Translations under genes and position numbers: made by a program
Assembly: GCA_041659065.1 (NCBI GenBank)
Contig: JBAZYY010000001.1
Location: 274,228-338,227, forward strand
Direction: 5' to 3'
Origin: Parcubacteria group bacterium
GTDB taxonomy: Bacteria > Patescibacteriota > Minisyncoccia > Moranbacterales > UBA11712
DNA length: 64,000 nucleotides
In this document: piece by piece, positions 32,183 through 46,835 of the stretch
Layout: each line of letters begins with the position of its first letter
Position numbering within the stretch: the first letter of the stretch is position 1
The notes under the pieces: model-generated
Databases searched by the model: none
The model's input: only the letters and a program-made list of their open reading frames with translations
Told to the model about the DNA's origin: nothing

Positions 32183-32707
32183 TTATCTGTAAATTCTGTA
32201 TTCAACTTCCCTCATTGGCTTTCCCTTGGCGTTTTTGCCTTCAAATTCCTGAATCACAACGCCGCCCAAACGTTCCGGTATTTTTCTGCTTGCGATATTA
32301 TCGACCACGACCGGATATTTAAGATAGTCATAATCCAGGTTCTCATCGGCCCATTTTTTTATGGCCGCGATGGCTTCTTGACCGTATTTATTTCCATGCG
32401 CGGATTTTTTCAGCCAAATTCCCAGTTCCGGATTTTTTTTATTAAGATCATGCAGGCCGGCACAGCCGAGAAACTCTTTGCTATCCCCCAGCAATACGAC
32501 AAACTGCAGATTGCTTCCGCTTTTCATTTCCTTCAGAGATTTGTTTATGAAATCTTGAGTCTCCGCGATCTCCGCGGGTGACTGAGGAAACATGTGGATA
32601 GCAATTTCATCAGTAAACTCCCTGAAAATAATTTCGGCGTATTCCAAAGATATTGGTTCCAGTAATAGTCTGCCAGTTTTTAGCTTAATTTTCAATAGAT
32701 CTTTCAT
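32183..32707 (-). CDS. GNAT-family N-acetyltransferase
   Basis: GNAT fold (RimJ/RimL-like). Confidence 0.6.
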   Translation of the reverse strand: MKDLLKIKLKTGRLLLEPISLEYAEIIFREFTDEIAIHMFPQSPAEIAETQDFINKSLKEMKSGSNLQFVVLLGDSKEFLGCAGLHDLNKKNPELGIWLKKSAHGNKYGQEAIAAIKKWADENLDYDYLKYPVVVDNIASRKIPERLGGVVIQEFEGKNAKGKPMREVEYRIYR

Positions 32708-32792
32708 TTTTCTTTTTTTCTGGTCTTAAATACATCTAAGGTTGTTTCTGATTTATTTCAGTCTTGGATTTCAATCCTCTGCGGAAATGATT

Positions 32793-33254
32793 TTATGTTT
32801 TTTCCCAGCCATATTCACTGTAGAAAATATTTTTTCGGATGCAATTGATTGCTTGCCTGACGCACGGAATAGTGTTTTCGGGAAGTTTATCCAGCGGAAA
32901 CCATTTTAGATCGTCACATCTATGCGGCTCCAGGTTGCAAGGCTCGCCTTTCCATTTTTGGGCTCTTATAAAAACATCCACTCTTTCTTTCAGTTCGACG
33001 GGATTTGCCTTTTCATATCGATTCATCAAGTGAACGACTTTCATGTCTCCCTTTCTTATTTCCAGACCGGCTTCTTCTTTTGCCTCACGGGCAAGGGTTT
33101 GCCTGAAGGTTTCATTGCCATCGAGGTGTCCCGCTACCAGGCTGTAATTGCCGTCGTTATACCCAGTATTGAATCGCCGAAGCAAAAGGATTTTATCGTC
33201 CTTAAACAGGATGAGATATGCGGCGGGAACAATTCTAAATCTGTCTTTGCTCAT
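32793..33254 (-). CDS. NUDIX hydrolase
   Basis: Nudix box GHLDGNETFRQTLAREAKEEAGLEI. Carries the island-type upstream module. Confidence 0.8.
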   Translation of the reverse strand: MSKDRFRIVPAAYLILFKDDKILLLRRFNTGYNDGNYSLVAGHLDGNETFRQTLAREAKEEAGLEIRKGDMKVVHLMNRYEKANPVELKERVDVFIRAQKWKGEPCNLEPHRCDDLKWFPLDKLPENTIPCVRQAINCIRKNIFYSEYGWEKT

Positions 33255-33265
33255 AGGTTTTTTTA

Positions 33266-33350
33266 TCCCCCGCCGAAATTACGTATTTCCTGTCCGCCTA
33301 TGGATGAAAATACGTATTTTTCTCTCCTAAAGTTCGAGTTTAGGAAAGCT
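33266..33350. repeat. short (deletion-derivative) copy of island intergenic module: CCCCCGCCGAAATTACGTA...AAAATACGTATTTT + 3' hairpin
   Basis: Shares the 5' box and the CCGCCTATGGA..TACGTA tail with copy A. The hairpin TCCTAAAGTTCGAGTTTAGGA lies at 33324-33344. Confidence 0.7.
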
Positions 33351-33376
33351 TAGGAACGCCTGAGAACCATCGATTT

Positions 33377-33925
33377 TTATGTCTTATATTTTTCTTTTTT
33401 TTCGTCGATTTTTTTCTTCATTTCTTTCAGCCGGCCTTCACAGCGCGCGAGCGTTGGAGCCACACCATAGGCTACTCTCAGAGCATTGAAATGATTCAGG
33501 ATCACGTGGGCGTCCATCACCTTGGGATCTTCGACCTCGTGTTTTAAATTATTCACCCGGTAAATTTTATTATTCTCTCCCACCAAGAACGTATAAAGTT
33601 TTTCTCCTACGGCCCTTGATTTCCCGATTTTGATATTAAACCCTTTCCGGTTGGCCAAAAGGCATGTCATCGCAGATACCGTAAAACAATTCCAGTTGGC
33701 TAATTTGCTGCCGTTGAAAAGCGCCTGGATATTTTCTTTTTCATCGCGCATAAAGTGCTTGATCTTATCAAACAGTTCAGCTTCGTCGACGTTTTCTATC
33801 CCGCCCTTTCCAAGGTATTCATCAAAATTATTCTCCAATTCGTCGATAATCGGACCGATACTTAATCCATCCTCAAGTTGTTCGGAATATGTTTTTTCTT
33901 CGAGAGTTTCTTTTATTTTTTCCAT
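33377..33925 (-). CDS. hypothetical protein
   Basis: 182-aa ORF preceded by repeat module copy A and followed by hairpin H1. Confidence 0.5.
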   Translation of the reverse strand: MEKIKETLEEKTYSEQLEDGLSIGPIIDELENNFDEYLGKGGIENVDEAELFDKIKHFMRDEKENIQALFNGSKLANWNCFTVSAMTCLLANRKGFNIKIGKSRAVGEKLYTFLVGENNKIYRVNNLKHEVEDPKVMDAHVILNHFNALRVAYGVAPTLARCEGRLKEMKKKIDEKKEKYKT

Positions 33926-33943
33926 ATTTTAGAAAATTATTTA

Positions 33944-34170
33944 TCCCCCGCCGGAAATACGTACCTAAATACGTATTAAAAATCCGCCGTTTTTCTTTTT
34001 ACCCCAACATTGAATGTTGGTAGAGGTTGCATATCCCCACTGTGTCATAATCATACGGCCGTGTTTAAGTGATACATTTTCGTTTTGGATATTTGTCTTT
34101 ATTCATTCCTGCCGGAATTATATAATTCTTACCCGCCTATGGAGGAAGTTACGTAATTATATTTTTATTC
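33944..34170. repeat. long intergenic repeat module copy A (~225 bp)
   Basis: About 90% identical to 38924-39150. Starts with TCCCCCGCCGGAAATACGTA and ends with CCTGCCGGAATTATATAATT...GTTACGTAATT. Internally contains GTATCA...TATAAT(minus)...TGATAC. Confidence 0.85.
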
Positions 34171-34533
34171 CGACAAAGAATCGGTGGCCAAATTTGGGGC
34201 CCTGCTCCTCTCTGATTATTTCTAGATCATTTTCCGATTCTAAATAACTTTTTACGTTTTCGATATCATCGCCCTTTGGCAGAACATCAACCATGATATC
34301 AGTCATTTCATGCGGAGAATTCTCCATATCAATGACAAAGATTGAATCGGTGACTAAGACTTTCAGCTCTTCTCTTAGTTTTAAAATATTTCTCGCTTCT
34401 CTTCCTTGATTGTTTGTTGAGCCGTCTCAATATCTTTTGACGTGTCGTCTTCGCCAGTCAAGCCTTTTATCCTTTCGGCTTCCTGCAGAGATTTTTCGAG
34501 TGAATATTGTTCCATATAATTTTTTGTTAATTA

Positions 34534-34584
34534 TCCCCCACCGGAAGTACCTGCCCGAAATGCTTTTCAAGGCAGGCGGGCGTA
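34534..34584. repeat. 51-bp direct repeat (left) flanking Fic module
   Basis: TCCCCCACCGGAAGTACCTGCCCGAAATGCTTTTCAAGGCAGGCGGGCGTA; 48/51 identical to 36842-36892. Contains an internal CCTGCC..GGCAGG stem. Confidence 0.85.
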
Positions 34585-34602
34585 TTTGAATGCGTAATCG
34601 CA

Positions 34603-34625
34603 TTCCTAAAGTTCGACTTTAGGAA
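34603..34625. repeat. conserved 3' hairpin TTCCTAAAGT-TCGA-ACTTTAGGAA (overlaps Fic stop codon)
   Basis: 10-bp perfect inverted repeat with no U-run. Same family as 33324, 37655, 39128 and 39264. Confidence 0.8.
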
Positions 34626-35554
34626 TGTTTAAAAGCTTTATTTAACTCCCTGGAAAATTCTCTGACAGCTTCAATATTTAGATTGAGGCTGTGGCCCAAG
34701 ATATCCCTTGTCATCTGCGCTCTCAACTCTTTTTTCTTCTTCTCAAGATTGTTTTTGATATTGTCAGGCAATTCACTTTGTTTCATCAGCATACCATTGT
34801 TATCCATTGGATGACCATATAGTTTTCTTTCTTCTGGTGACATCAGGTCATATGCAGCCAGAAATCCAATTGAATCCAGGTCAAATCCCCACGACTCGCC
34901 TTCCAGCCGGACATTAAATTCATTGTTAACAAAAGCCAAGCTCAGACCTCTTCCTCTGAGCTGATTCGCAAACCAGCCGTAATTGACCACGTCGTGATAG
35001 GTATCTATCTTCATATTCCTTTCGATCAAAATATTTTTGAGATCCTGTTGAAGCGAAGCAGCTTCTTTTTGAATGTCTGGAGAAAACAAAAAATATACCA
35101 GCCTTGCTGTTCTCCCATTTCCATCCGCAAAAGGATGCGTATATATAATCAAGTTATACATTGTGAGGGCAATGGCTTCATTTTTATTGGGATGATCTCC
35201 ATTTGCGATCACTTTCATTTTCTCAAATGTTTCCCGAAAAATTTCATTTTTGTCTTCCATGTCTGGCGGCATGAGATTCACCAAATCGTCGTACCAACCA
35301 TCTACCAGCTTTACCTTTTTGTTTAGAATTTCTCTCTTTGGTGGCTCAATGTCGTTTATTATTCCATTCGTTCTTTTCATGAGATCCAGAAACCGCTCAA
35401 AATCAGAATTCCGAATCAGCTCGATATATACTTCGCTGCTACCCATGTCCCGTTCTCCAACGGATCTTTTCATGAATGTATAAATTTTGTCCGCCCCCCG
35501 ATTTTTCCTGTCTGCAGACTCCTGCTGCTGCTCTTGAAAGTCCTCCAATAACAT
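34619..35554 (-). CDS. Fic/Doc-family protein (AMPylase-type toxin-like)
   Basis: Canonical Fic motif HPFADGNGRTARL (HxFx[D/E]GNGRxxR). Confidence 0.8.
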   Translation of the reverse strand: MLLEDFQEQQQESADRKNRGADKIYTFMKRSVGERDMGSSEVYIELIRNSDFERFLDLMKRTNGIINDIEPPKREILNKKVKLVDGWYDDLVNLMPPDMEDKNEIFRETFEKMKVIANGDHPNKNEAIALTMYNLIIYTHPFADGNGRTARLVYFLFSPDIQKEAASLQQDLKNILIERNMKIDTYHDVVNYGWFANQLRGRGLSLAFVNNEFNVRLEGESWGFDLDSIGFLAAYDLMSPEERKLYGHPMDNNGMLMKQSELPDNIKNNLEKKKKELRAQMTRDILGHSLNLNIEAVREFSRELNKAFKHS

Positions 35555-35611
35555 GTCAATTGAAATTTAATTATCTAATAACGAAAGCAAGGAAATCTTA
35601 TGCTGATATAC

Positions 35612-36493
35612 TCATCCCGTCGCGATCGGCTTCAAGGGTACAATATAATAACTTAGTTTTTCATGACCAATATCCTCATCTTCGATTCTTGTATCAATCG
35701 TGCGCCTCATCTGACTGATTTCAAGGCGAATTGCCTCTCTTATCCTTTCTGGTGTCGCGTGTTTTAAAACAGACAGGCGAAGTTTCTCTTCATCTTCATT
35801 TGAAAAATCAAGTTCTTCCTTTGAAATCTTGTTGAGCACTTGAAACCACAATGCAATTTCCTTTATTGGCGAATCATCTGATGATCTTTCAGGATGCTCC
35901 AACCTTATGACAACAGCTTCATCGTGCCTCGCGTATTTTTTCCAGTACTTTTCAAAAAAAGCTAGGATAGCTTGCTCTTCTTGTGGTTGCAAATTTTTGC
36001 GTCCGTATTTCAATTCCTCTTCGCTTCTGTTTTTCCATTTTTCTATCCGCATTTTCAAATATTTGAGAGCATCTTCATAATTTCTGTTTCTGAAAGACTG
36101 CTCGTGTGAAAATTTCGAAGTAAACTGGTCAAACCATTCAGGTGAACCTTCGGCATAGCTATAAGCGGCTTCCGCATCTCCCGTAACAAATATCTTGTCC
36201 TCACTATTCAGCTTATACCACCCGAAAGTCTGCTCACTTTCACCGATTCGCTTCATTATTGAAATCATTTCTTCAATTTCGTTGCACTCAAAATCTCTTC
36301 TCTCTCTGCTTAATCCATGCTCCCTGATGCCCTCAAGCGCACTGAGATTCGTTCCGTGAAAATAAATTTCCATCACGCTTTGCAAAATGCGTTCTGCGAT
36401 GACCAATGATCCTTCAATATTTTCACCGAATTTATTTCCTATGATCCGCTCTGCAAGTTGGATATATACATCCGTAAGCCCGTAGCTATTCAA
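35612..36493 (-). CDS. hypothetical protein, co-operonic with Fic
   Basis: 293-aa ORF, 57 bp upstream of Fic. Confidence 0.5.
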   Translation of the reverse strand: MNSYGLTDVYIQLAERIIGNKFGENIEGSLVIAERILQSVMEIYFHGTNLSALEGIREHGLSRERRDFECNEIEEMISIMKRIGESEQTFGWYKLNSEDKIFVTGDAEAAYSYAEGSPEWFDQFTSKFSHEQSFRNRNYEDALKYLKMRIEKWKNRSEEELKYGRKNLQPQEEQAILAFFEKYWKKYARHDEAVVIRLEHPERSSDDSPIKEIALWFQVLNKISKEELDFSNEDEEKLRLSVLKHATPERIREAIRLEISQMRRTIDTRIEDEDIGHEKLSYYIVPLKPIATG

Positions 36494-36822
36494 GCCTTCG
36501 CTTTTTCCGCCCCATTTGGATATTCTCGAAATTGCGTCTTTTTATTGAAATTGATATTCCCAATGACATCAGGGATATAAGCGGACTCCTTTCCATCCCC
36601 GGTTATGGAAAGTGCGCTCAAGCAGGCTGAAACGGCATGCCTCAGGGCAAGCTTATCCTCACATCTCAAAAATATACCCTGAAACTCCTTCTTCTTCAAG
36701 ATGAGGGGATCTCTGATTGAGTCATTTGAATTTTTCTCTCCTTGATTTGAAGATCCACTTTCTTTTTTCTTCACAGTAGGAGCTCTTGACAGACTTTCTT
36801 TTTTATCAAAAATGTTTCCCAT
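36490..36822 (-). CDS. hypothetical protein (first gene of Fic operon)
   Basis: 110-aa ORF overlapping the next gene by 4 nt (translational coupling); island module lies upstream. Confidence 0.45.
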   Translation of the reverse strand: MGNIFDKKESLSRAPTVKKKESGSSNQGEKNSNDSIRDPLILKKKEFQGIFLRCEDKLALRHAVSACLSALSITGDGKESAYIPDVIGNINFNKKTQFREYPNGAEKAKA

Positions 36823-36841
36823 AATTGTTGCAATAAAAATG

Positions 36842-36892
36842 TCCCCCGCCAGAAATACCTGCCCGAAATGCTTTTCAAGGCAGGCGGGCGTA
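36842..36892. repeat. 51-bp direct repeat (right) flanking Fic module
   Basis: TCCCCCGCCAGAAATACCTGCCCGAAATGCTTTTCAAGGCAGGCGGGCGTA. Confidence 0.85.
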
Positions 36893-36924
36893 ATTAATTA
36901 GGTGATTTTTTTGATTCGTAACAT

Positions 36925-36975
36925 TTAGCTTAGAGAGCATTTATTGTGTCATAATCATACGACCGTATTATTGTG
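36925..36975. repeat. partial copy D of long repeat (GTGTCATAATCATACGACCGT...)
   Basis: Aligns to the TGTATCATAATTATACGGCCGTGTTTA core of copies A, B and C. Confidence 0.6.
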
Positions 36976-36981
36976 ATGCAA

Positions 36982-37539
36982 TTATCTTTTGAAAAAATGC
37001 CCTTTAAGGGTGGCTTCATTGTCGATGCTTGTGGTAGTGACTATCCTGACGTAGGGACCGGCCGAATAGAGCGAAACCAATTCCTGAATGGGTTTTTCGA
37101 ACGGATATGGTGAAACAAAGACGCTATGCTGGAGCTTCAAAAATTTGAGTGTCCGCAAATGCTCGCGCAAAATATCACGGAACAGCCGATTTTTCTCAGG
37201 AATGTCAAAAAGGACAAGTCGCCATTTTCCGTCCCAGCGCTTCGGTTTTTTGAATCTAATGGAACTCCCCAGGAGACTCAATATCTTTGCCTCTCGTCTG
37301 CCTCTTGTCGTCAGAACCAATCTAAAAGATCCGTCAGGCAACTTCTTCTCTTCAAGCAGCTTCTCTAAAGACAAACGGCGCAAAGAACGGTTGAAATTGC
37401 GCTGGTCTATTTTTTTCCATTCTGACCGCAGCATGCGCAACGTCCGATAATATTGCCGGGGAGACCGGGAAAAACCAAGGGCGAATCCGCCTGAAAGGCT
37501 GAGGAGTATTTTCTTTTGCACCGGGCCGAATTTATACAT
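36982..37539 (-). CDS. PaaX-like putative transcriptional regulator (wHTH + Cas2-like-fold C-terminal domain)
   Basis: KRWDGKWRLVLFDIPE...LRTLKFLKLQHSVFVSPYP resembles PaaX_C. The N-terminus is basic and wHTH-like. Confidence 0.45.
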   Translation of the reverse strand: MYKFGPVQKKILLSLSGGFALGFSRSPRQYYRTLRMLRSEWKKIDQRNFNRSLRRLSLEKLLEEKKLPDGSFRLVLTTRGRREAKILSLLGSSIRFKKPKRWDGKWRLVLFDIPEKNRLFRDILREHLRTLKFLKLQHSVFVSPYPFEKPIQELVSLYSAGPYVRIVTTTSIDNEATLKGHFFKR

Positions 37540-37542
37540 ATT

Positions 37543-37650
37543 CTCATTGTATCATAATTATACGGCCGTGTTTAGATGATACATTTTTGTTTTGGATATT
37601 TGCCTTCACTCATTCCCGCCGGAATTACGTAATTGGTTACGTAATTCCCC
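37543..37650. repeat. long repeat copy C (3' two-thirds), with two AATTACGTAATT-type palindromes
   Basis: CATTGTATCATAATTATACGGCCGTGTTTAGATGATACATTTTTGTTTTGGATATTTGCC...CCCGCCGGAATTACGTAATTGGTTACGTAATT. The minus strand gives TATAAT 17-22 nt upstream of the PaaX-like ATG. Confidence 0.8.
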
Positions 37651-37654
37651 TGAA

Positions 37655-37675
37655 TCCTAAAGTCCGATTTTGGGA
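37655..37675. repeat. 3' hairpin TCCTAAAGTCCGATTTTGGGA (degenerate copy)
   Basis: Same family; lies immediately after the stop of the PRTase-like gene. Confidence 0.6.
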
Positions 37676-37688
37676 ATAACTAGGTTAC

Positions 37689-38495
37689 TTATTTCCGTGG
37701 TTTTTGGATTCCTAAAGATCTCAATGTCGCCAAGATTTTTTTCTTTATCTCAGCGACTGTCTTGAATTCCAGTCTGAAGTCATTCTCGTCTTTTCTATCT
37801 TTATTTCCATAAGCCGTATTGTGGCGAGTATGTATATTGCCTCTTGATCCCGTATCGTGAACATACAAATGCGACCAGGCATGTGAAAAGAGTTGCGTTG
37901 CCACAATGTCGAAATGGATTTTGAAATTTTTGTCATTTTTTATTTTTTCCAGCATCATTTGATGATGATCGTCGCTGCCTGCTGCATTATTGCCAGCGCA
38001 TGACAACGCAAAATAAAATATATTATCAAATCCCTGACGGCAATCCTTAATCATTTTGAGCGTCGCCGCTCCTTCACCATCGGATATTGTTTCATCGACG
38101 AAAAAAACTTTTTTATTCGCCAAATGGCCGACATTATTCTCGATCAAGGATTCATTTAATAAGGTCATGTTTATGTACGCCATTTTTAGATTTTCATCAT
38201 TAAAAAACTGAATTTCAGGCATTTTCTGCAAATTCATTTCCTGGAGATATTTTTTCATGGGAGTTCCGAACATGCGCGCGCCTTTATCCAAAAAGACAAT
38301 TACGTCCGGTTGCTCCTTAAAAATATTAACAACTAAGTCCTTAAGAGCTGGCCGAATAAGCTCCAGATCGGATTCGGCCTCTTTGATTGCATCCTCGTAC
38401 AGATTTGCCAGCAGTTCCTGTTTTTTTTGATCAGTTAAGGTGTTTTTTCTTTCTATTGCGTTTCCTTCCATAGCTATGTATCGATTTTTATACAA
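37689..38495 (-). CDS. phosphoribosyltransferase-like domain protein
   Basis: KKVFFVDETISDGEGAAT resembles a PRTase PRPP-binding loop. Weak call. Confidence 0.35.
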   Translation of the reverse strand: MYKNRYIAMEGNAIERKNTLTDQKKQELLANLYEDAIKEAESDLELIRPALKDLVVNIFKEQPDVIVFLDKGARMFGTPMKKYLQEMNLQKMPEIQFFNDENLKMAYINMTLLNESLIENNVGHLANKKVFFVDETISDGEGAATLKMIKDCRQGFDNIFYFALSCAGNNAAGSDDHHQMMLEKIKNDKNFKIHFDIVATQLFSHAWSHLYVHDTGSRGNIHTRHNTAYGNKDRKDENDFRLEFKTVAEIKKKILATLRSLGIQKPRK

Positions 38496-38571
38496 GCGAG
38501 TCTTTTACCCACTTTAGGAATTCCAGATTTTCATAGAATTTTCTAACATTAAATGTGAGAACGGGTTACTC

Positions 38572-38904
38572 CTAAATAACATTGTACGGTCCTCCGATGT
38601 TGAGTAGATCCGCAAAAAATACAAGAATTGGGGTCAAAATAAAATATAGGCCGAGCAGCCAAAAAATCCACCGCAAAATGTGTCCTTTTCCACCTTCTTT
38701 ATAAATTATCCAGTATATCCTTACGCAAAGAATAAGGATAAACAAAACCGCCAATTCGATCGCTGCGTTCGGGCCATGGATGGTCATGAAACATGCCGCA
38801 CAAAGCATTATGGAAAAGATATAAGTATAGAAAATGGCCACTATATAAAACAAGACAAGCGTTAGCAGCGCATAGCCGATAAATCTTAGGATTGGTTTCT
38901 TCAT
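38572..38904 (-). CDS. small integral membrane protein
   Basis: Three TM helices; repeat copy B lies upstream. Confidence 0.5.
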   Translation of the reverse strand: MKKPILRFIGYALLTLVLFYIVAIFYTYIFSIMLCAACFMTIHGPNAAIELAVLFILILCVRIYWIIYKEGGKGHILRWIFWLLGLYFILTPILVFFADLLNIGGPYNVI

Positions 38905-38923
38905 ATTTTTTGTTTAAAAATTT

Positions 38924-39150
38924 CCCCCCCGCCGGAAATACGCAATCGAATACGTAATAAAAAATCCGTCGTTTTTCTTTTTACCCCGACATTGAATATT
39001 GGTAGAGGTTACATATTCCCATTGTATCATAATTATACGGCCGTGTTTAGGTGATACATTTTTGTTTTGGATATTTGTCTTTATTCATTCCCGCCGGAAT
39101 TACGTAATTAAATATGTATTTCTTTTATTCCGAAGTTTGACTTTAGGAAC
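38924..39150. repeat. long intergenic repeat module copy B + hairpin TTCCGAAGTTTGACTTTAGGAA (39128-39149)
   Basis: About 90% identical to copy A over about 200 bp. Contains the AATTACGTAATT perfect palindrome. Confidence 0.85.
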
Positions 39151-39263
39151 GGTTAAGCCATTCTACGCGCTTTTGCAAATAGTGTTTGTCGTAAAGGCCA
39201 GTTTCTGCGATTTTATCTGCCAATGATTTTAGTTTCTCTAATATATAACTGTGTGTTTTTTTA

Positions 39264-39286
39264 TTCCTAAAGTCGGACTTTAGGAA
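39264..39286. repeat. 3' hairpin TTCCTAAAGT-CGGA-CTTTAGGAA
   Basis: Perfect 9-10 bp inverted repeat, the last copy at the island/R-M boundary. Confidence 0.8.
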
Positions 39287-39568
39287 TGATTAATACTGTG
39301 AAACCTCGCAAAGGAATTGATAATCTGACACCTATGGAGAAACTGATTGAATATTTTTATCCGACGGAATTGTAAACAACGCTCTTAATTCTTACAGATT
39401 ATATCTTATGTTTAATCTAATTATAGCCTTTTTATAAACAAAAACCAGTCCTTTCGAGCTGGGAAAACTTCGCGCTATTGGACTGTTTTTCATCCACGTC
39501 CCCGTCTGCCAATTTAGGAGAAAAAGCTGGAAAATCACGCTTTGTTTTTTTGTCATGCGACAACTGTA

Positions 39569-39736
39569 TTATCTGTCACGCCAAACATATATATAGCCGG
39601 GAGGCGCCGGGGGCTTAGGTGGTTTTGGAGGTTTGGGCGGCCGCGGTGGACGAGGTGGTCTTGGTGGTCGCGGAGGCTTTGGCGGTTTTGGCGGAACCAA
39701 TGGACCCCGTGGATCTTTTGTTAATTTCCATGGCAT
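39569..39736 (-). CDS. 55-aa proline-rich (PP[KR])n repeat peptide
   Basis: MPWKLTKDPRGPLVPPKPPKPPRPPRPPRPPRPPKPPKPPKPPAPPGYIYVWRDR. AAGAAAGGAGGTGA Shine-Dalgarno sequence lies 8 nt upstream of the ATG. Not in the ORF track because it is under 60 aa. The listed plus ORF 39542-39724 is its antisense artefact. Confidence 0.6.
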   Translation of the reverse strand: MPWKLTKDPRGPLVPPKPPKPPRPPRPPRPPRPPKPPKPPKPPAPPGYIYVWRDR

Positions 39737-39796
39737 AATTATTTCTCACCTCCTTTCTTAATCATTTTTTCAACTTTATCTGTTTATACGGATAAA

Positions 39797-39955
39797 TCAT
39801 TCTTCAATATATTTCGGATTGTCACAATCGCTTTTATATACTGGCATAGTATCGCCGGCTTCATCCACAGCATCAAAAAGTTCATATGCTACCCAATACT
39901 CCGGCACAGTCGTCATTTGACCATAACTTTTGTGTTCGAATTTTACAAATGGCAT
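39797..39955 (-). CDS. 52-aa acidic small protein
   Basis: MPFVKFEHKSYGQMTTVPEYWVAYELFDAVDEAGDTMPVYKSDCDNPKYIEE. Starts 14 nt after the hsdS stop, with the Pro-rich gene 60 nt downstream. Confidence 0.4.
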   Translation of the reverse strand: MPFVKFEHKSYGQMTTVPEYWVAYELFDAVDEAGDTMPVYKSDCDNPKYIEE

Positions 39956-39969
39956 AAGATTTGAAAAAA

Positions 39970-41415
39970 TTATTTAATCGCCTTTTCAATAATCTCATCA
40001 ATCTTTTTCCTCTCCACTTCGATTTTTTTCTTCATTTCCTCTTGCTTGTCCAGCTCCGCTTTGATTTCATCAACGATTTTTTGCTGTCGCTTTATGTCTG
40101 GAATTGGTAACTCGAAATCATATAATTCTTTCGAAGAGATTTTTACCATTGTTTGGTTTTTTCCTTTAGCGGAATACTTGAAATAAATTCTTCCAATAAT
40201 AGAGTTGAACGCATATGCTATATATTCTTTATTTATCTCATTTTCATCAAATTTTATTTTTATCATTAGATCTGGATAAATAAATTCTTTGTCTTCACTT
40301 TCAACTTTTGCCACAGCTGCTAATGCAACTAGCCCTAGCGTGTTCCCTCGACTTACAAAAAAATCACCGTTTTGGACAAAAAAATCTCGGCTATTATTTC
40401 TTGTTTGTTGTGTATATTTAGGATTGCCAAACGTCATTTTCCCATTTTTCTGAATTGAATCTATTCCAAGAATCGCCTGCCCACCTTCATCCTCATTGCA
40501 TTCAGGTGACCATCCATTTTTTGTGCTTTTAATAAATTTTCCCAAAAAATCAATACTATCATTGTTTTTGTAAAGTTCACCCTGAACTCGTTCAAGCTGA
40601 CTCCATCTGTAGCTAGATCTCAAATTGTTGTTTTTAAAATCGAGCAGTGACAGATCAATATAAAATTTTCTATCATTATCAATCTTATGAATTTTTTCCA
40701 AATCAAACCCAAACTCGCGAGCAAAGACCTTGTTCATAGCTTCCTGCGCAGGAGAAATTTGATTTTTCAGCTCCTTGATTTTATTCTCAATCGGTTCAAT
40801 CTGAGAAATAATTTCATTTTCGAGTTTCTCCAGCTTATCAATAGCAGCCTTACTAAATTTCAAATAAAATAAATCATCTTCCTTGAGAGTCGGATAGCCT
40901 TTCCCCTGTCTTGAAATCGCCATTAAGTCATTATAGAATATTGTTCTGAAAGCATAATAGAATATTTTGTTTAATTTCCTTGGTTTCAAGTTGATAAAAG
41001 CGGTTGTGTAAAAATAATCTTTATTTTTCTCATCAACAAAGACATATTTCCTTAAATTCGGTCTGACTTTTGCCAATAGGATGTCATTCTCGTTGGATTT
41101 TTGTATGTCTCCCTTCTCTATTTTTTTGAAATAATCAGCGACCAACTCATTTATATTGGAAAAGTTCAATTTTTCCGGCTCAACGTCTCCCTGTTTTGTC
41201 ACATTTCCGATTTCGGCATAATAAAAATCATCATCTAGGTGGTCTATCAAATCCATTCTTTCTTTTTTGGTTGAGTTTACTATTTCAAATAAATCCCTGA
41301 ATGAGTATCTTTCTTGCCTCTCATTTTTATTAAAATCGGCAAAATCAACGTCGAATCTATTCGACGCTTCTTTCGCTAATTCCAGAAAATCAATTGCGAA
41401 TTGTTTTAGCGGCAT
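39970..41415 (-). CDS. hsdS: restriction-modification specificity subunit (HsdS-like, two TRDs)
   Basis: Two variable TRDs separated by conserved coiled-coil regions; the C-terminal RQQKIVDEIKAELDKQEEMKKKIE is typical of HsdS/BcgIB. Confidence 0.8.
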   Translation of the reverse strand: MPLKQFAIDFLELAKEASNRFDVDFADFNKNERQERYSFRDLFEIVNSTKKERMDLIDHLDDDFYYAEIGNVTKQGDVEPEKLNFSNINELVADYFKKIEKGDIQKSNENDILLAKVRPNLRKYVFVDEKNKDYFYTTAFINLKPRKLNKIFYYAFRTIFYNDLMAISRQGKGYPTLKEDDLFYLKFSKAAIDKLEKLENEIISQIEPIENKIKELKNQISPAQEAMNKVFAREFGFDLEKIHKIDNDRKFYIDLSLLDFKNNNLRSSYRWSQLERVQGELYKNNDSIDFLGKFIKSTKNGWSPECNEDEGGQAILGIDSIQKNGKMTFGNPKYTQQTRNNSRDFFVQNGDFFVSRGNTLGLVALAAVAKVESEDKEFIYPDLMIKIKFDENEINKEYIAYAFNSIIGRIYFKYSAKGKNQTMVKISSKELYDFELPIPDIKRQQKIVDEIKAELDKQEEMKKKIEVERKKIDEIIEKAIK

Positions 41416-41417
41416 AA

Positions 41418-43007
41418 TTATTTCTCAATAAAATCAATGAATTCTTTCTTCTTATCTTCTGTTAATTTTCCTGATTTCAATTGGTTAAGAATTTCCAGTG
41501 GTTTATCTCTTTCCTTTTCATCGAACTCAACATATCTTTCCAATGTATCTGGAAATTTTTTAATATCAATAGTAAAAATATTTTTATCATCAAATATTTC
41601 TTTATTCCTTTCTTTGTGTTCTTCGTTTTTGTCGCCATCCCCATCAAATAAAACACTATGTTTAATACCAAATTCCAAACATAGACTCATAAACCTTGGT
41701 ATATTCCACTTGCCGCCACAATCAATAATATAAACATTCGCGTCTACATTAAAATTTTGAATTAGATAGTTAAGAAAAACTTTGTCAGTTGAACCTTCAA
41801 CTAATATAACCTTATCAACAAAAAACATTGTATTTCTATCCGGATTTAGCCAAAGAACAAAACTAAAGATGTCTTCCTCTGTCTTGAGCTGATCTAAAAA
41901 ATTTTGACTGGCTTTGAATATTTCCGTTTCAGTATTTTCTTTCACATAGCGAAAGATGCTGAAAAGTGCGTTGCTCTTCGTGGTAATAAGATTTGGTGAA
42001 TGTGTACACAAAAATATTTGACTAGATCCAGATTTTGCTATTTCTTCTAAATTTTTAAGGAGTTTCTTTTCCTGGTCATAGTGAAGCAATGATTCGGGCT
42101 CCTCATATAGCAATAAAGTAAGATCTCCACTGAATATTTTTTTACTAGCTTTCTTTTTTTTACTTTCAACTTGAGCCCATAATAGCAACAGGCTGTTGAC
42201 GATTGACCTTTGCGCACCTGATCCAAGGGTCAGGGGGTCTTCCTCTTGACCCGTATCCTCAGACAAAAGTTTTAATTTTGAGCCTGAAATAATTATATCC
42301 TCCGGTGTTGGCGGTGAAATATCAATTTGAGATCGCAATCGCCAAGACGAAAGCATTTCCGTTAAACTTTCTTCGATTTCATGCACACTCTTTAAGTTGC
42401 CTTCTCCGCTATCCTTTATAGGACTTTTCAAATCATTCGTAAATTTTTTCACTTCCCTAACCAAATCATTCCATGAATCTAATTCTACTAAAGCTTCAGA
42501 AAGTATTCTGCTTATGAGTTTTGTAAAGATTGAAGATTTTGTTTTCTTTAACTCTTCGCTCAGATCTTTTACTGCTGGAATGTATATTATGTCGCCCAAC
42601 TTTCCCACAGGAACATTCTTATCCCCAAAAAATTCACTCTCTCTTTCCTTTATGATTCCACCTTTAATTTCAAACCCATGAAATTCACCTTTTAATTTTT
42701 CCTTGGTAAATCTCTTAACGACTTTTAGCCTATTATTTGGTAATTTATAAAATTCTGGCAACTGTGAAAACTCTTCTTCATGAAGCTCATATTCTAGGGT
42801 AATTTCGATAGGCGCAGAACTGCAGCTTCGACAAAAATCCTCAACAGTCACATTATAATCAGCATAAAATGCTCGAATAGCATGAATGACTGAAGATTTT
42901 CCCGCATTATTTTGACCGATAAATGTCCAAATATCATCTGTTGGACCACTCAAATTTGCGCTTTTGATGGATCGAAAATTTTTTATTTCAATTTCCTTTA
43001 TCTTCAT
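41418..43007 (-). CDS. OLD-family ATP-dependent endonuclease (ABC-type ATPase + TOPRIM; class 1 OLD / fused PARIS-like)
   Basis: Walker A GQNNAGKSS; Walker B LLLYEEPE; TOPRIM VILVEGSTDKVFL...FDGDGD (E...DxD). Confidence 0.7.
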   Translation of the reverse strand: MKIKEIEIKNFRSIKSANLSGPTDDIWTFIGQNNAGKSSVIHAIRAFYADYNVTVEDFCRSCSSAPIEITLEYELHEEEFSQLPEFYKLPNNRLKVVKRFTKEKLKGEFHGFEIKGGIIKERESEFFGDKNVPVGKLGDIIYIPAVKDLSEELKKTKSSIFTKLISRILSEALVELDSWNDLVREVKKFTNDLKSPIKDSGEGNLKSVHEIEESLTEMLSSWRLRSQIDISPPTPEDIIISGSKLKLLSEDTGQEEDPLTLGSGAQRSIVNSLLLLWAQVESKKKKASKKIFSGDLTLLLYEEPESLLHYDQEKKLLKNLEEIAKSGSSQIFLCTHSPNLITTKSNALFSIFRYVKENTETEIFKASQNFLDQLKTEEDIFSFVLWLNPDRNTMFFVDKVILVEGSTDKVFLNYLIQNFNVDANVYIIDCGGKWNIPRFMSLCLEFGIKHSVLFDGDGDKNEEHKERNKEIFDDKNIFTIDIKKFPDTLERYVEFDEKERDKPLEILNQLKSGKLTEDKKKEFIDFIEK

Positions 43008-43015
43008 GATATTTC

Positions 43016-43330
43016 CTATTTATAAACCACACTGCTCCGCAGTTCAAACGCATCTACCCCCAAAATAATCGCCGCGAAATCAATCAGCCAATGATAGATC
43101 CGTCCATAGGTTGCATTGAAACCGCCGAGTTGCCTATTTTTGTATTCATCAATGAAATTCCACAGTTCTTTTTCCAAATCAATCCCTTTTTGCAAAATCT
43201 TCTCGGCAAACTCCGGCAAAGCTTCGCGAAAATATTTTTCCCGCTCCGGCGTATGTCCATATTGATCAAAAAACTGCTGATTGAAATTCTGGATTTCTTT
43301 TCCCATTTTTGTTTTTGCCTCCTCGGTCAT
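43016..43330 (-). CDS. hypothetical protein
   Basis: 104-aa ORF packed between the GIY-YIG and OLD genes. Confidence 0.45.
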   Translation of the reverse strand: MTEEAKTKMGKEIQNFNQQFFDQYGHTPEREKYFREALPEFAEKILQKGIDLEKELWNFIDEYKNRQLGGFNATYGRIYHWLIDFAAIILGVDAFELRSSVVYK

Positions 43331-43359
43331 ATTTTTTTGTTAATTTTTATTTTGCGGTT

Positions 43360-43614
43360 TTACCCTATTAAGTAAGATTTGAGCCTGTTTTTTATGTATC
43401 TCTTGTCGTAAATTGTTTTAAGATATTTCTCTCTTTTGGTGGCATCTTGTTGATTTAGACAAGCTTCATAATAAACAAGGTTTAATGGCCTTCTGTCTTT
43501 AGTAGAATCCACTAGCCCTTTGTTATGTTGCTCAAATCTTAATTTTAAATTTTTAGTATAACCAACATAGTTTTTGTTATCTTTTAAGCTTCGCAAAACA
43601 TAAACGTATCGCAT
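43360..43614 (-). CDS. GIY-YIG nuclease superfamily protein (stand-alone, YhbQ-like)
   Basis: MRYVYVLRSLKDNKNYVGYTKNLKLRFEQHN matches the GIY..YIG..R..H core. Confidence 0.7.
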   Translation of the reverse strand: MRYVYVLRSLKDNKNYVGYTKNLKLRFEQHNKGLVDSTKDRRPLNLVYYEACLNQQDATKREKYLKTIYDKRYIKNRLKSYLIG

Positions 43615-43655
43615 GCTAGCTTGGCAAAAATTTAAAATTTACTTAATAGGGTGAA

Positions 43656-46010
43656 TCACCACTCGATTTTTCGCATATAATCCAACGCGGTTTCCATTTT
43701 TCCATCATCCACCAAGACCTTCCCATCTTTGTCGATTCGATAGAGCTCGTTCGGCATTGGTTTTTCGCCGCGCTTGGTACGCTTGTAACCGACGTTTTCC
43801 ACTTCCGCCATGAAAATTTTGTAGTTGAGCTCGCGGGCCACTTCGCCAAAAACCCACCAGGTGTTCACGAAGCCAAAAACATCTTTCGTATCGTTGTCAT
43901 ACTTGCAAAGATCTTCGAGTTCCGAGGCGTATTTTTTTGCCAATTCTCTCGCAGCAAGCTTCTGATCATCTTTCTCGACGTAATTTTTGAGCATCCTGGA
44001 GAGAACTTCTTTTTCTTCTTTTTCCTTCAATCCTTTGACTGACGGTAATTTATTCCTATTTTTTCCGTTCAAATATACTTCGGCCAAATTTTCACACCTA
44101 GTCCTAAGATTTCCCCATTCGTTTCCATATTTTTTCCAAAGTTCGTCCCATTTTTCAATTTCCGATTTGGCTTTCTTCTCGGCGAAGAGCAAGCTCGTTT
44201 TGGTCGAAGTGAATGGTTCAAAGGTAACTTGCGGGAGTGACACCACCGCTTTGACTTTGAAATATTTGTAGATAAAAAGACGGATATATTTGTTTTCTGT
44301 CGTGTCGAAAACGCTTTCCGGCAAAACCGCGCCCAACCGGCCGCCATCTTTGAGCAGTTGATACCACCTTTCCACAAAAAGATTCTCACTATTTTTCTTG
44401 CCGCCGAAAATAAATTCTTCTTTGACATTGTCTTTGGTGTCTTTATCCAAATCGACGCTAAATGGCGGATTGGTCACGATAATGTCAAATTGCTCATTCA
44501 CCTCTTTGTCAAAATATTTCTTGTCACTTTTTGATTGTTGCAGCTTGTTGGAATAGAAATTGAAAGGCAAAAGCCCGTCTTTCACATAGATATTGGCCGA
44601 GCCATCGCCATGCAAAATCATATTCACTTTTGTAGCTGTCCCCAAATTGAAATTTATATCCGTTCCATAAATATATTCCTCCGCCCATTGATTTTCCAGA
44701 TTATCGGGATAGAACCAGCTTTGCATCTTGTTTTCAATATTTCTGGAATTTTCTATTCCATCCTTGAATCTGCGCTTGATGTTTTCAGTGATAAACTTCA
44801 TGTATTCAATCAGAAAAGTTCCACTGCCGGCGCTCGGATCAATTATGTAAGGAAGTTTTTGATTATTATTGATGTTGGAAATGGCCAGTTTGTCCGCCTG
44901 CAAGCCCCACAGCAAAAACCTCACCACATTTATATGGGTAAAAAATTGTCCTTTTGTTTGTTTGAATCCGTCGCGAATTATTCCCTCAAAGAAATCTCCC
45001 AGAATATCTTTTCCGTTAAAACTATTCTTCCCGTCCACGAAGGAATAGCCCTCTAGTTGCGACACTGCGTACTTAAGTTTAGAGAGAGGAAATTTGTTTT
45101 CATCGACGATATAGGATTTTTTTAATTTGACTTCGTCCGTGATTCCCAGCCTCTCCTGCAACGCTCTTCTGTAAATCTCGTTTATTCTTTCAAAAAGCTG
45201 TTCGTTGGTTTCAAAACTTTTTCCGTCTTCAAAAGAAAATATTTGAAATCCATATTTTTCTCCTTGTCTTCGCTCACTCTCATCCTGGATTTTGGCCAAA
45301 ATGATATTGACCAGCGAAGAAAAAATATCATTATCATCCGTGCCGCCGCCGCCCCAAAGCACATTGTGCAAATTCTTACTCAGAGAATCAAGATTTTCGT
45401 GAGTAAAGCTTGTTTCCAAATCTTTCTCTCCTCCTTTCACATACGGCTCTTTTTGTGCTTTGCCATATCTGACCGGCAGCTCGTCCGCAAAATCGCGCAC
45501 TTCCTTCCAGGAGCTGAAGGAGGAAAATTTTTCATAGTCAATCAAAATGCACTTGTCTTTTATTTCATTTTCTATTATTTCAAAAGTATAGAGCGTGAGA
45601 TATTTAACTTTCTTTCCTTGGCCTTGTTCTTGTGAAGCTAGATTAAAAAGCTGTTTTTCAATAACCTCATCTTTGTCTTTTTCATAGTCTTGAGGACTTT
45701 TGAGTTCAACATACAAAAATGCGTCGCCTTTGTCATCCCTGACAATGATATCAATTCTCGGTTTGTTTACTTTTGGTCTTCCGATATCGTATTCTTTTTC
45801 AAGTTCGATGTTTTCCGGTTTATATCCGAGTTCATTTACTAATTTAGCAAGAATATATGCTCGAACAATTTCCTCGTCGCCTTTGAATTTTTCGATTTTC
45901 CAACCCTTTATTTTTTCGGAATATTTGACTTTTTTATTTTTAAAATCATAGGCTTCAACAACCTTTATTTTTTGACTATCGAGACATTTTTCAATTAATT
46001 GTGTATTCAT
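43656..46010 (-). CDS. hsdM: gamma-class N6-adenine DNA methyltransferase (HsdM-like) with N-terminal HsdR_N-like PD-(D/E)xK domain (BcgIA/type IIG-like architecture)
   Basis: Motif I IIDPSAGSGTFL; motif IV IVTNPPFSV. The N-terminal RIDIIVRDDKGDAFLYVELKSP resembles the HsdR_N nuclease motif. The ORF extends to a GTG at 46055; the first ATG is at 46010. Confidence 0.7.
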   Translation of the reverse strand: MNTQLIEKCLDSQKIKVVEAYDFKNKKVKYSEKIKGWKIEKFKGDEEIVRAYILAKLVNELGYKPENIELEKEYDIGRPKVNKPRIDIIVRDDKGDAFLYVELKSPQDYEKDKDEVIEKQLFNLASQEQGQGKKVKYLTLYTFEIIENEIKDKCILIDYEKFSSFSSWKEVRDFADELPVRYGKAQKEPYVKGGEKDLETSFTHENLDSLSKNLHNVLWGGGGTDDNDIFSSLVNIILAKIQDESERRQGEKYGFQIFSFEDGKSFETNEQLFERINEIYRRALQERLGITDEVKLKKSYIVDENKFPLSKLKYAVSQLEGYSFVDGKNSFNGKDILGDFFEGIIRDGFKQTKGQFFTHINVVRFLLWGLQADKLAISNINNNQKLPYIIDPSAGSGTFLIEYMKFITENIKRRFKDGIENSRNIENKMQSWFYPDNLENQWAEEYIYGTDINFNLGTATKVNMILHGDGSANIYVKDGLLPFNFYSNKLQQSKSDKKYFDKEVNEQFDIIVTNPPFSVDLDKDTKDNVKEEFIFGGKKNSENLFVERWYQLLKDGGRLGAVLPESVFDTTENKYIRLFIYKYFKVKAVVSLPQVTFEPFTSTKTSLLFAEKKAKSEIEKWDELWKKYGNEWGNLRTRCENLAEVYLNGKNRNKLPSVKGLKEKEEKEVLSRMLKNYVEKDDQKLAARELAKKYASELEDLCKYDNDTKDVFGFVNTWWVFGEVARELNYKIFMAEVENVGYKRTKRGEKPMPNELYRIDKDGKVLVDDGKMETALDYMRKIEW

Positions 46011-46047
46011 AATTTTTTTATGCAAAGTCCTAGGGCAGCGTGGTAAT

Positions 46048-46080
46048 ACTATCACTATATCACTATTATTATATCACTGC
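46048..46080. promoter_or_regulatory. three TATCACT direct repeats upstream of the MTase gene (candidate operator)
   Basis: TATCACT at 46050, 46058 and 46072, between the AbrB-like gene and hsdM. Confidence 0.35.
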
Positions 46081-46101
46081 AAGCTTTTTCCTGTGGATAA
46101 A

Positions 46102-46278
46102 TTACTTTTTCCAATCCCTAATCACCACCCCGCCTTTAATTTTTTTGACCACCACTTTCTGCTTCTCCCGCCAGCCGAGTTCGCGAACAAGTTCAATCGG
46201 CAAGGTGAGGCCGATTGATTTTTTGCCAATCTTCGTCAACTTGCGGATGTTTGTTTCGCCAGCTTTTTTAGTCGGCAT
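46102..46278 (-). CDS. AbrB/MazE/SpoVT-family DNA-binding protein (antitoxin-like or controller)
   Basis: GKKSIGLTLPIELVRELGWREKQKVVVKKIKGGVVIRDW matches a swapped-hairpin AbrB domain. ATG at 46278. Confidence 0.6.
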   Translation of the reverse strand: MPTKKAGETNIRKLTKIGKKSIGLTLPIELVRELGWREKQKVVVKKIKGGVVIRDWKK

Positions 46279-46346
46279 ATTTTTTGAAGTAAGCAATTAA
46301 TTACTTAATTCCTTGAGTTCTTCAAATATTAAGCTCGTCCATAAGC

Positions 46347-46745: not shown

Positions 46746-46787
46746 TTTTTGTATATTTGCGCCTTTATTCTATCCCAAAACCCGCTT

Positions 46788-46835
46788 TTTTTCAAATAAA
46801 AAAGGCCTCTCTACTTTGAGGCCGGTGGTGGTTTT
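46788..46835. terminator. bidirectional intrinsic terminator (GGCCTCTCTACTTTGAGGCC hairpin flanked by A- and T-runs); member of the TTTCAAATAAAAAAGGCCTCTCTACTT repeat family
   Basis: Hairpin at 46804-46823; A-run at 46794-46803; GGTGGTGGTTTTTT downstream. Confidence 0.55.

Follow-up and report, generated by a model that had tools for sequence, protein, structure and literature searches.

Candidate phyla radiation (CPR) bacteria have tiny genomes, few recognizable regulators and no genetics, and to our knowledge next to nothing has been learned about the control or exchange of their accessory genes. The repeated intergenic element described here lies in a 64,000-nucleotide stretch of a Parcubacteria group genome (contig JBAZYY010000001.1; hereafter the window) and resembles several systems known from other bacteria. 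Integron arrays and clusters of attC sites lacking integron integrases (CALINs) have in common with it the co-oriented, short and mostly single-gene units, the structured repeat borders of about 70 nt, the empty units, the scarcity of promoters and a gene content that includes Fic, Nudix, small membrane and hypothetical proteins. The repetitive extragenic palindromic (REP) sequences and bacterial interspersed mosaic elements (BIMEs) of Enterobacteria are likewise intergenic at the 3' ends of genes, with a compensating palindrome, a short conserved motif 5' of the stem (GTAA/GTAG-CC here) and a mosaic of sub-motifs. As with the AbrB-type gene of the window, the genes of autoregulated AbrB/MazE/SpoVT repressors and of the controller (C) proteins of restriction-modification (RM) systems encode small DNA-binding proteins, head RM or defense genes and have tandem palindromic sites immediately upstream of their own start codon. 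Finally, PaaX of Escherichia coli binds TGATTC-N27-GAATCA and represses its own promoter (PMC9493321). A PaaX-like protein encoded in the window shares with it a core of winged helix-turn-helix (wHTH) plus PaaX_M and short inverted repeats about two helical turns apart over its own promoter.

A search of the literature found no account of an integron, promoter motif or regulator in Patescibacteria or Moranbacteria that would cover this case, and the searchable literature holds no description of the element. It would work most like a small-regulon operator and looks most like a REP/BIME mosaic or an integron-like junction. At the same time, it lacks the defining properties of an integron attC site, an intrinsic terminator and a Shine-Dalgarno (SD) sequence and appears to lack those of a canonical promoter. 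The reading that we favor, with a probability of roughly 0.4, is that of a composite boundary and operator element, mosaic in construction and specific to the lineage of Moranbacteria-like CPR, which punctuates small accessory units.

Read along the coding strand, the module runs from a hairpin (H) located where the upstream gene ends through two abutting 12-bp dyads (P1P2) and a G-box to an AT-rich leader and the ATG. The full unit consists of (G)TAACC, H, an A-rich linker, P1P2 as AAWTACGTAWTT, then TTCCGGCGGGGGA, an AT-rich leader of 11-19 nt and the ATG. Minus-strand positions 33,265 to 39,290 contain eight copies, and the rest of the window has none. In the order of the minus strand (39,290-33,255), the genes of this island are a remnant small open reading frame (ORF); a 110-aa membrane protein and a phosphoribosyltransferase-like (PRT-like) protein; the PaaX-like protein; hyp110, hyp293 and a Fic-domain protein; a small, probably frameshifted gene; hyp182; and a Nudix protein.

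Motif counts show that the arrangement is not random. The G-box pattern TTYCKGYRGGGGR has seven matches in the 64 kb, where 2.75 are expected, and the five that precede genes all fall within 33,266-38,937. WTACGTAW is found nine times (1.8 expected), with eight of the matches in the island, and the hairpin pattern TCCTAAAGTnnnACTTTAGGA has five copies (0.04 expected). Additionally, an nhmmer profile of the dyads and box gave six matches at E < 1e-5, all on the minus strand within 33,265-39,122 and none elsewhere in the window. These counts and the profile confirm the observation of a first-pass annotation of this DNA that a shared module in one orientation precedes at least five genes or operons, and its interpretation is partly supported. 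The perfect palindromes that it described on the minus strand were recovered (AAAATACGTATTTT at 33,307-33,320; AATTACGTAATT at 39,098-39,109 and 37,623-37,634), as was a TATAAT within GTATCA...TGATAC, which is found in copies A and B, with variants containing TATGAT and ...TGACAC in copies C and D. This last motif belongs to a separate 39-nt palindrome (PAL), laid out as ATGTATCAC-N6-ACGGCCGT-ATAATTA-TGATACAAT and containing the TATAAT. In copies A1, B and C1, PAL lies about 30 nt downstream of a variant form of the box, GGCGGGAATGA. The placement of the box at a consistent 17-23 nt before the ATG held only in part. Measured from the end of the box, the distances are 18, 18, 18, 19 and 11 nt, and three of the eight box copies are the GGGAATGA variant, which is located about 75 nt upstream of the promoter-like palindrome and away from the start codon. 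The hairpin at gene ends, the conservation throughout the lineage and the cassette-like hot-spot context had been overlooked.

Conservation of this anatomy, covariation within it and association with the same genes were observed in related genomes. A scan of genome collections with the 17-mer of the dyad-box junction gave 112 matches, about 100 of which were chance matches in unrelated phyla; 11 loci from CPR metagenome-assembled genomes (MAGs) were informative, and a stricter pattern gave 15 metagenome loci. Where loci from these genome and metagenome collections must be told apart, they are given L-numbers. The architecture is the same at all of the CPR and metagenome loci, which comprise 31 distinct copies on about 20 Moranbacteria/Parcubacteria contigs; 21 copies were aligned. 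The block AAATACGTATTTAAATACGTATTTCCGGCGGGG is identical in nine loci despite protein identities of only 65-80% between those genomes, and the element is often identical, base for base, across 33 nt between contigs. Hairpin H has a stem of 10 bp and a loop of 3 nt, and its consensus contains stop codons in all three frames. Compensatory changes affect eight of the ten pairs (for example, CCTAAAGT/ACTTTAGG, CCTAACATT/AATGTTAGG, CCCAACATT/AATGTTGGG and CGCTAAGGTT/AACCTTAGCG), and none of 500 shuffles reached the observed score. In H, mismatches of the G·U kind are roughly as frequent as those of the A·C kind, indicating that it has no strand bias. GTAA/GTAG-CC is conserved before the hairpin. 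For the dyads, self-symmetry of the 12-mer holds in 35 of 41 informative cells, slightly better than the 31 of 41 for a single long junction hairpin.

The same gene families are found behind the module in varying order, namely hyp182, TspO, Nudix, the 'MPIE' and 'MQKQ' small proteins and trmD. The array of L122 reads 131aa-H-M1-hyp188-H-M1-TspO-box-'MPIE' protein-H-M1-'MQKQ' membrane protein-dyads+H2-MsrA, while L126 contains two tandem units and in L146 a PaaX-like gene is surrounded by five G-boxes within 4 kb. Viral contigs did not contain the full module, and their palindrome-only matches were unrelated AT-rich repeats. One IMG/VR contig (L156, positions 3001-3700) carries, in this order, a 5'-truncated PaaX-like gene, PAL, AATTACGTAATTAATTACTTACCTC and a truncated TspO gene; this 'viral' contig may be a cellular fragment rather than phage.

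The dyads look like a site bound by protein, both from the symmetry of the 12-mer and from their position before the gene of a DNA-binding protein in other genomes, and to this extent the earlier proposal of an operator at TACGTA appears well founded. The gene in question belongs to the AbrB/MazE/SpoVT type (PF04014; 640 homologs, the best 120 at 69-84% identity). TACGTA-type 12-bp repeats are located 5-40 nt before its ATG in 7 of 10 contexts, which are L058 (two), L014, L140 (three repeats, 5 nt from the ATG), L153, L062 and, with degenerate repeats, the window. The AbrB-type gene of L138 is preceded by a variant repeat, TTCAGTAA. The gene usually heads RM or defense genes, as in the window (46,102-46,275 with 43,656-46,055) and in L138, L140 and L150. 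Those behind it include N6 methylases, ResIII, DpnI, GmrSD, Fic and DUF3800, an arrangement reminiscent of RM controller proteins. In contrast to the AbrB/MazE and C proteins, the sites are reused before many unrelated small genes and no toxin partner is evident, and in contrast to antitoxins the AbrB-type protein is unusually conserved (about 70-84% among the best 120 homologs). By its association with the repeats, this protein is a better candidate than the PaaX-like protein for the TACGTA dyads.

The PaaX-like protein (PF20803, E = 9e-22) possesses an N-terminal wHTH and a central PaaX_M domain, which is Cas2-like. At 185 aa it differs from E. coli PaaX in having no match to the C-terminal effector domain PaaX_C, and no paa genes lie nearby. 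Its AlphaFold2 model, which is of low confidence (mean predicted local distance difference test score 65), shows HHH-EE and then a ferredoxin-like fold, and the best match of the model in the PDB is E. coli PaaX (8a39, E = 3.9e-5). The family has 529 homologs, of which the best 120 share 65-88% identity. Sequence searches of solved structures with the PaaX-like and AbrB-type proteins gave nothing useful. In five of five genomes (the window, L049, L146, L147 and L149), PAL, centered on ACGGCCGT, flanks the PaaX-like gene on its upstream and its downstream side, whereas TACGTA dyads are absent beside it in three of the five (L049, L146 and L149). The arms of PAL covary (TGTATCA/TGATACA, TACATAAT/ATTATGTA and AGCATTTTG/…ATGCT), and the site in the window, TGTATCA-N22-TGATACA, has a layout analogous to that of the E. 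coli PaaX operator. Because of this bracketing, the three genomes without dyads and the analogy with E. coli, PAL rather than TACGTA is probably the operator of the PaaX-like protein, and the first-pass assignment of this protein to AATTACGTAATT is not borne out. PAL also differs from the E. coli operator, in that it contains an extra central ACGGCCGT dyad and has a second copy after the gene. The end of copy B has a leaderless-type geometry (Table 1). In long copies A and C, the corresponding ATG is directly followed by TAACC and H2, a second flavor of the hairpin (CCAACATTCAATGTTGG), and these copies would therefore be PaaX-less, promoter-only versions of the PaaX-like unit.

The G-box is not readily explained as a ribosome-binding site (RBS), although the first-pass annotation had named an unusual RBS among its possible roles. 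An SD-like motif precedes only 7 of 62 genes in the window. In many genes TGnTATAAT stands 6-8 nt ahead of the ATG, and the pattern suggests that leaderless or very short-leader mRNAs are widespread in this CPR genome. Moreover, the spacing from box to ATG is 11-19 nt here and 6-34 nt across other genomes, and an SD role for the G-box was rejected on this spacing and on the SD-poor genome. A rare canonical SD of the window, AAAGGAGGTG, precedes an ORF for a 55-aa proline-rich peptide (…PPKPPKPPRPPRPPRPPRPPKPPKPPKPPAPPGYIYVWRDR) at 39,569-39,736 on the minus strand. The box also occurs in a dyad-less form, H - AAAA - CCCGnnCC - TCGAATT - CCGGCGGGGGA. In 11 of 15 such copies from relatives, the box supplies the 3' arm of a small GC hairpin, with C-rich 5' arms that vary, at the beginning of the leader. 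Owing to G·U pairs, the sense strand has the greater stability in 10 of 15. In copies D and E, CGCCCGCC pairs with GGCGGGGG around an inserted 31-nt hairpin. Folding of module RNAs beats that of shuffled sequences in six of seven tested (z = -3.0 to -5.0), with two or three adjacent hairpins in each unit.

In a promoter scan, PAL of copies A and B gave the only promoter-like sites (TAAACA-17-TACAAT with TG), and the total count did not exceed that of shuffles. Behind the box, at varying distances, there are ATAAT-like motifs. Good promoter-like sites in the array are limited to the palindromic TATAAT elements and a single site near 39,425. A canonical TATAAT lies just upstream of the module both in L093 and near 39,425, and the module would therefore sit in a transcribed leader. 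Several other identities were considered and rejected. For a promoter of the extracytoplasmic function (ECF) type, the distance from the GAAC in the hairpin loop to CGTA is too variable (16-20 nt), and for a sigma-54 promoter GG-N10-GC is missing. Hairpin H was rejected as an intrinsic terminator, with an AT-rich stem, an A-rich linker after it and a terminator scan that was silent; canonical terminators exist elsewhere in these genomes. A Dif/Xer-like core site would have a spacer of 6 nt instead of 3 nt, and copies of a DNA uptake sequence would be dispersed rather than clustered. Rfam gave no match at the gathering threshold in the window, and an E-value scan of the island returned only two spurious matches to eukaryotic snoRNAs. 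The window contains no tRNA or tmRNA.

The copies in the window differ in their composition (Table 1). Copies F and C1 have an X insert of 19 nt (TTCCTCCATAGGCGG) that separates the two dyads, while copies D and E contain an identical GC-rich 31-nt hairpin (CCCGCCTGCCTTGAAAAGCATTTCGGGCAGG) exactly inside the TACG^TA center. Long copies A and C share 91% identity across 153 nt. Partial hairpins, which consist of the 5' arm only, the 3' arm only or a duplicated 5' arm with breakpoints at the loop, are found in the window (38,508-38,520 and 33,348-33,359) and in L034 (about 5310-5330), L125 (about 673-700) and L041 (about 4010-4050), as if exchange had taken place at the center of the palindrome.

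Table 1. Module copies, their sub-elements and the associated genes, by position in the window.
Feature	Position	Strand	Details
Possible decayed module copy (X-type)	39,296-39,362	-	Alignment score 32-36 (shuffle mean 13, SD 6); downstream of GGCTATAAT promoter-like site near 39,425
Hairpin H, first copy (TTCCTAAAGTCCGACTTTAGGAA)	39,264-39,286	-	Upstream end of array
Remnant small ORF (…EKLKSLADKIAETGLYDKHYLQKRVEWLNRS, then stop)	39,157-39,262	-	ATG now ATA; stop codon inside next hairpin; product 54% identical over 28 aa to post-module gene of L121
Hairpin H, degenerate copy	39,127-39,150	-	
Long copy A	38,923-39,121	-	P1P2 39,098-39,121; box variant TTCCGGCGGGAATG 39,086-39,099; PAL with TATAAT 39,021-39,059; ATG directly followed by TAACC and H2 (38,984-39,005); second P1P2 38,936-38,959; G-box 38,923-38,937, 18 nt to ATG of membrane-protein gene
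110-aa membrane-protein gene (unit 1)	38,572-38,904	-	
Half hairpin	38,508-38,520	-	5' arm of H only, broken at loop; between membrane-protein and PRT-like genes
PRT-like gene	37,689-38,495	-	Weak Pfam match
Copy B	37,546-37,676	-	H 37,654-37,676; P1P2 37,623-37,646; box variant 37,611-37,624; PAL ATGTATCATCTAAACACGGCCGTATAATTATGATACAAT 37,546-37,584; ends in TGATACAAT, 6 nt, then ATG of PaaX-like gene
PaaX-like gene	36,982-37,539	-	185 aa; winged helix and PaaX_M (Cas2-like)
Copy D	36,842-36,981	-	Second PAL 36,943-36,981, directly after PaaX-like stop codon; remnant dyad ending TACG; 31-nt hairpin 36,858-36,888; TATTTCTGGCGGGGGA (G-box 36,842-36,854), 19 nt before ATG of hyp110-hyp293-Fic operon
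Three-gene unit hyp110, hyp293, Fic-domain protein	34,619-36,822	-	
Copy E	34,534-34,625	-	H 34,603-34,625, overlapping Fic stop codon; dyads GATTACGCATTC/AAATACG; 31-nt hairpin 34,550-34,580; G-box TTCCGGTGGGGGA 34,534-34,546
ORFs of 44 aa and 56 aa behind copy E	34,157-34,515	-	Probably one frameshifted gene; 56-aa ORF with weak DUF7072 match
Long copy C	33,944-34,158	-	Dyad 34,147-34,158; X insert TTCCTCCATAGGCGGG 34,132-34,147; dyad TATATA 34,116-34,127; box variant 34,104-34,117; PAL 34,039-34,077; H2 34,002-34,023; P1P2 33,955-33,978; G-box 33,944-33,956, 18 nt to hyp182 ATG
hyp182 gene	33,377-33,925	-	Homologs behind same module in L058/L122
Copy F	33,266-33,359	-	Duplicated 5' arm 33,348-33,359; H 33,324-33,346; dyad 33,308-33,319; X insert 33,293-33,308; dyad 33,277-33,288; G-box 33,266-33,278; 11 nt to Nudix ATG
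Nudix gene, last unit	32,793-33,254	-	Followed by GNAT gene and trmD-ftsW-murG, no further module
58-aa AbrB/MazE/SpoVT-type gene	46,102-46,275	-	First gene before RM methylase; candidate dyad binder
Degenerate dyads AATTAAGTAATTAATTGCTTACTT	about 46,283-46,306 (region 46,102-46,312)	-	Before AbrB-type gene

The island forms part of an accessory segment of about 16 kb (32,200-47,850) between SMC-rpsP-KH and (Nudix-GNAT-)trmD-ftsW-murG-murC, which also contains TspO, the AbrB-type gene, an RM methylase, an OLD nuclease and a type I S subunit. The variable interval from rpsP-KH to trmD-ftsW-murG is the usual location of the element. In L098 the same interval consists only of KH - H - P1P2 - box - trmD, about 0.3 kb, plus an insertion of one ATPase gene. 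An accessory and defense hot spot is seen there in the window, L098, L075 and L014/L120. A Pfam search of essentially all ORFs of at least 100 aa found no integrase, recombinase or transposase in the window. The ATPase of L098 (600-2340) is a 474-aa AAA_14/DUF4143 protein with a perfect TTGACA-N17-TATAAT promoter; its gene is inserted after the first 37 nt of trmD, and these 37 nt are duplicated. In L034 (3650-5370), what comes after the same module-trmD'-ATPase block is not trmD but a half hairpin, then a module and a glycosyltransferase gene, with a scaffold gap just upstream. Another site, between two glycosyltransferase genes (GT|GT), holds a PaaX-like gene and a 178-aa gene in L147 (6730-10540) and an AbrB-type gene and DUF3800 in L153 (8865-12215). 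Elsewhere in the window, at 56,725-58,668 and 58,732-59,316, there are three more Nudix genes interleaved with a tRNA-editing-domain gene, and an HNH endonuclease gene on the opposite strand.

For the composite boundary and operator element, we infer binding, the direction of control and the structure of transcripts from the sequences as follows. H would close the upstream gene or unit. P1P2 would be the operator for a dimer of dimers (tetramer) of the AbrB/MazE-type protein encoded in the same variable region. Once bound, this protein would gate the transcription that enters the downstream unit, either by occlusion of a weak promoter in the area of the G-box and the AT-rich leader or by acting as a roadblock against read-through. 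The read-through would originate from a few sigma-70-type promoters, namely the PAL elements of copies A, B, C and D and the site near 39,425. PAL itself would serve as the autoregulatory operator and promoter of the PaaX-like protein and would also be present as two gene-less, promoter-only copies (A and C). The G-box would be a sequence-specific leader element and not an RBS. Lastly, the units would pile up at a recombination hot spot between rpsP-KH and trmD.

A number of observations weigh against this mechanism. The link between the AbrB-type protein and the dyads is one of association, and the AbrB-type genes of L142 and L150 have no dyads. The dyads also adjoin PaaX-like units in the window, L147 and L156, and they could therefore have a generic role at junctions. 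Some six copies lack a gene behind them and face the next hairpin, a terminator or a convergent gene (L119, L127, L041, L124 and L125). A sigma-70-like -35/-10 pair at a fixed distance was not found in the module, and the earlier description of the module as a promoter was not supported. Furthermore, the base-for-base identity over 33 nt across genomes exceeds that of usual operators and fits a recombining or mobile element better. The half-hairpins broken at the loop (38,508-38,520 in the window, and L034) suggest that H takes part in recombination. The operator model also leaves hairpin H and the G-box unexplained. The favored and rival readings are not mutually exclusive.

The main rival, which is possible but doubtful, takes H, P1P2 and the G-box together as a recombination site that bounds mobile single-gene cassettes. 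It could act by site-specific exchange or as portable homology in homologous recombination and would give rise to hot-spot arrays as in integrons and CALINs, with the PAL promoters in the role of Pc. Such cassettes would account for the co-oriented, mostly promoterless single-ORF units that are each bounded by repeats (in the window; in L122, with five units; in L146, with five G-boxes in 4 kb; and in L126), for the empty units (L119, L127 and long copies A and C of the window) and for the occurrence of the same gene families in differing orders and contexts. They would also fit the hot spot at rpsP-KH | trmD, which spans 0.3 kb in L098 versus about 16 kb here, the GT|GT site that holds either a PaaX-like unit or AbrB and DUF3800, and the identity of the junction over 33 nt between genomes. 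Some details of the repeats point the same way, including the half-hairpins broken at the loop, the duplication of some 5' arms, the 31-nt insertion exactly at the TACG^TA center and the fold of the whole unit into two or three neighboring hairpins (z = -3 to -5). However, no integrase, transposase or recombinase is found in the 64 kb or beside the arrays at other loci. CALINs lack an integrase too, and the missing IntI therefore does not exclude a CALIN-like array. Inspection of 31 junctions showed neither the R''/L''/L'/R' layout of attC nor a GTTRRRY/RYYYAAC pair at the ends, and where attC forms one long imperfect hairpin the unit here forms two or three separate ones. The element also precedes the core gene trmD, and the dyads occur alone before AbrB-type genes. 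Polymorphism of presence and absence between strains was not found; look-ups of exact proteins gave only the same arrangement, with contigs broken at the repeats. In addition, the evidence from L034 adjoins a scaffold gap. An integrase-less, integron-like cassette system in Moranbacteria-like CPR, whose junction would be both a recombination site and a shared operator for an AbrB-type protein over an accessory pool, combines this reading with the operator, and we regard it as unlikely. In such a system, gene-sized units would be swapped and piled up at a few sites of the chromosome, such as rpsP-KH | trmD and GT|GT.

It is rather improbable that the element is a selfish mosaic repeat of the REP/BIME type or of the kind known as miniature inverted-repeat transposable elements (MITEs), spreading between genes without a regulatory role for its neighbors. 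The mosaic itself would be expected of such a repeat, its parts (H1 or H2, X insert, Y spacer, 31-nt hairpin, dyads and box) being freely combined and nested. The conserved GTAA/GTAG-CC stands before the hairpin where REPs have GTAG, and assemblies break at the copies. A Y1 transposase resembling the REP-associated tyrosine transposases (RAYTs) is present in the related genome L138 (5850-6620), where GTAG-AGACGC…GCGTCT hairpins stand on either side of its gene. Their sequence bears no relation to that of H, though, no RAYT is found in the window, and no cognate RAYT was identified. In contrast to REPs, which are dispersed throughout the genome, the copies in the window are all confined to one island of 6 kb. 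They have a single orientation and a tight position with respect to the downstream start codon, and most full copies have an ATG within 6-50 nt. They also combine a 24-bp dyad pair with an invariant G-box and lack terminal inverted repeats or target duplications. The recurrence of the dyads before the gene of a DNA-binding protein is likewise at odds with a purely selfish repeat.

An action at the level of RNA, between cistrons, is about as improbable. In this case H would be a protective stem-loop at the 3' end of the upstream message, and the dyad hairpin and the stem of the G-box would form a 5' leader structure of the downstream message, involved in processing, stability or SD-independent initiation on polycistronic transcripts. 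The RNA folding described above, in which modules outfold shuffled sequences, the G-box of dyad-less copies forms the 3' arm of a hairpin and the sense strand is usually the more stable, agrees with this proposal, as does the way in which CGCCCGCC and GGCGGGGG of copies D and E enclose a hairpin. Moreover, H abuts or overlaps stop codons, and the genome is poor in SD sequences. Against these points, Rfam gave no match even at E < 1, H is without strand bias and the stems are short and AT-rich. The self-symmetry of the dyad 12-mer is a signature of DNA-protein interaction, and the sequence of the G-box is invariant beyond what pairing alone would demand.

The proposal of the first-pass annotation that the PaaX-like wHTH protein binds the TACGTA palindromes to control a regulon of five units, with CCGGCGGGGGA as an operator or unusual RBS, is hardly credible, for while the protein does resemble PaaX and its gene lies inside the array with the dyads of copy B upstream of it (as also in L147), the ACGGCCGT-centered palindrome brackets the gene with or without dyads, modules occur at loci with no PaaX-like gene nearby, SD sequences are little used and the spacing of the box is variable.

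For the biology of CPR bacteria, the conserved junction of 33 nt provides a concrete handle. It is reused before TspO, Nudix, Fic, small membrane and acidic proteins and the trmD-cell-wall operon. Two regulator-operator pairs are predicted, the AbrB-type protein with the TACGTA dyads (AAATACGTATTTAAATACGTATTT) and the PaaX-like protein with the ACGGCCGT palindrome, and a hot spot has been identified where accessory and defense genes gather. If the junction is a recombination site, it would represent a new way to build cassette arrays. If it is an operator only, the array would be an ordinary lineage-specific regulon, though an unusually well conserved one.

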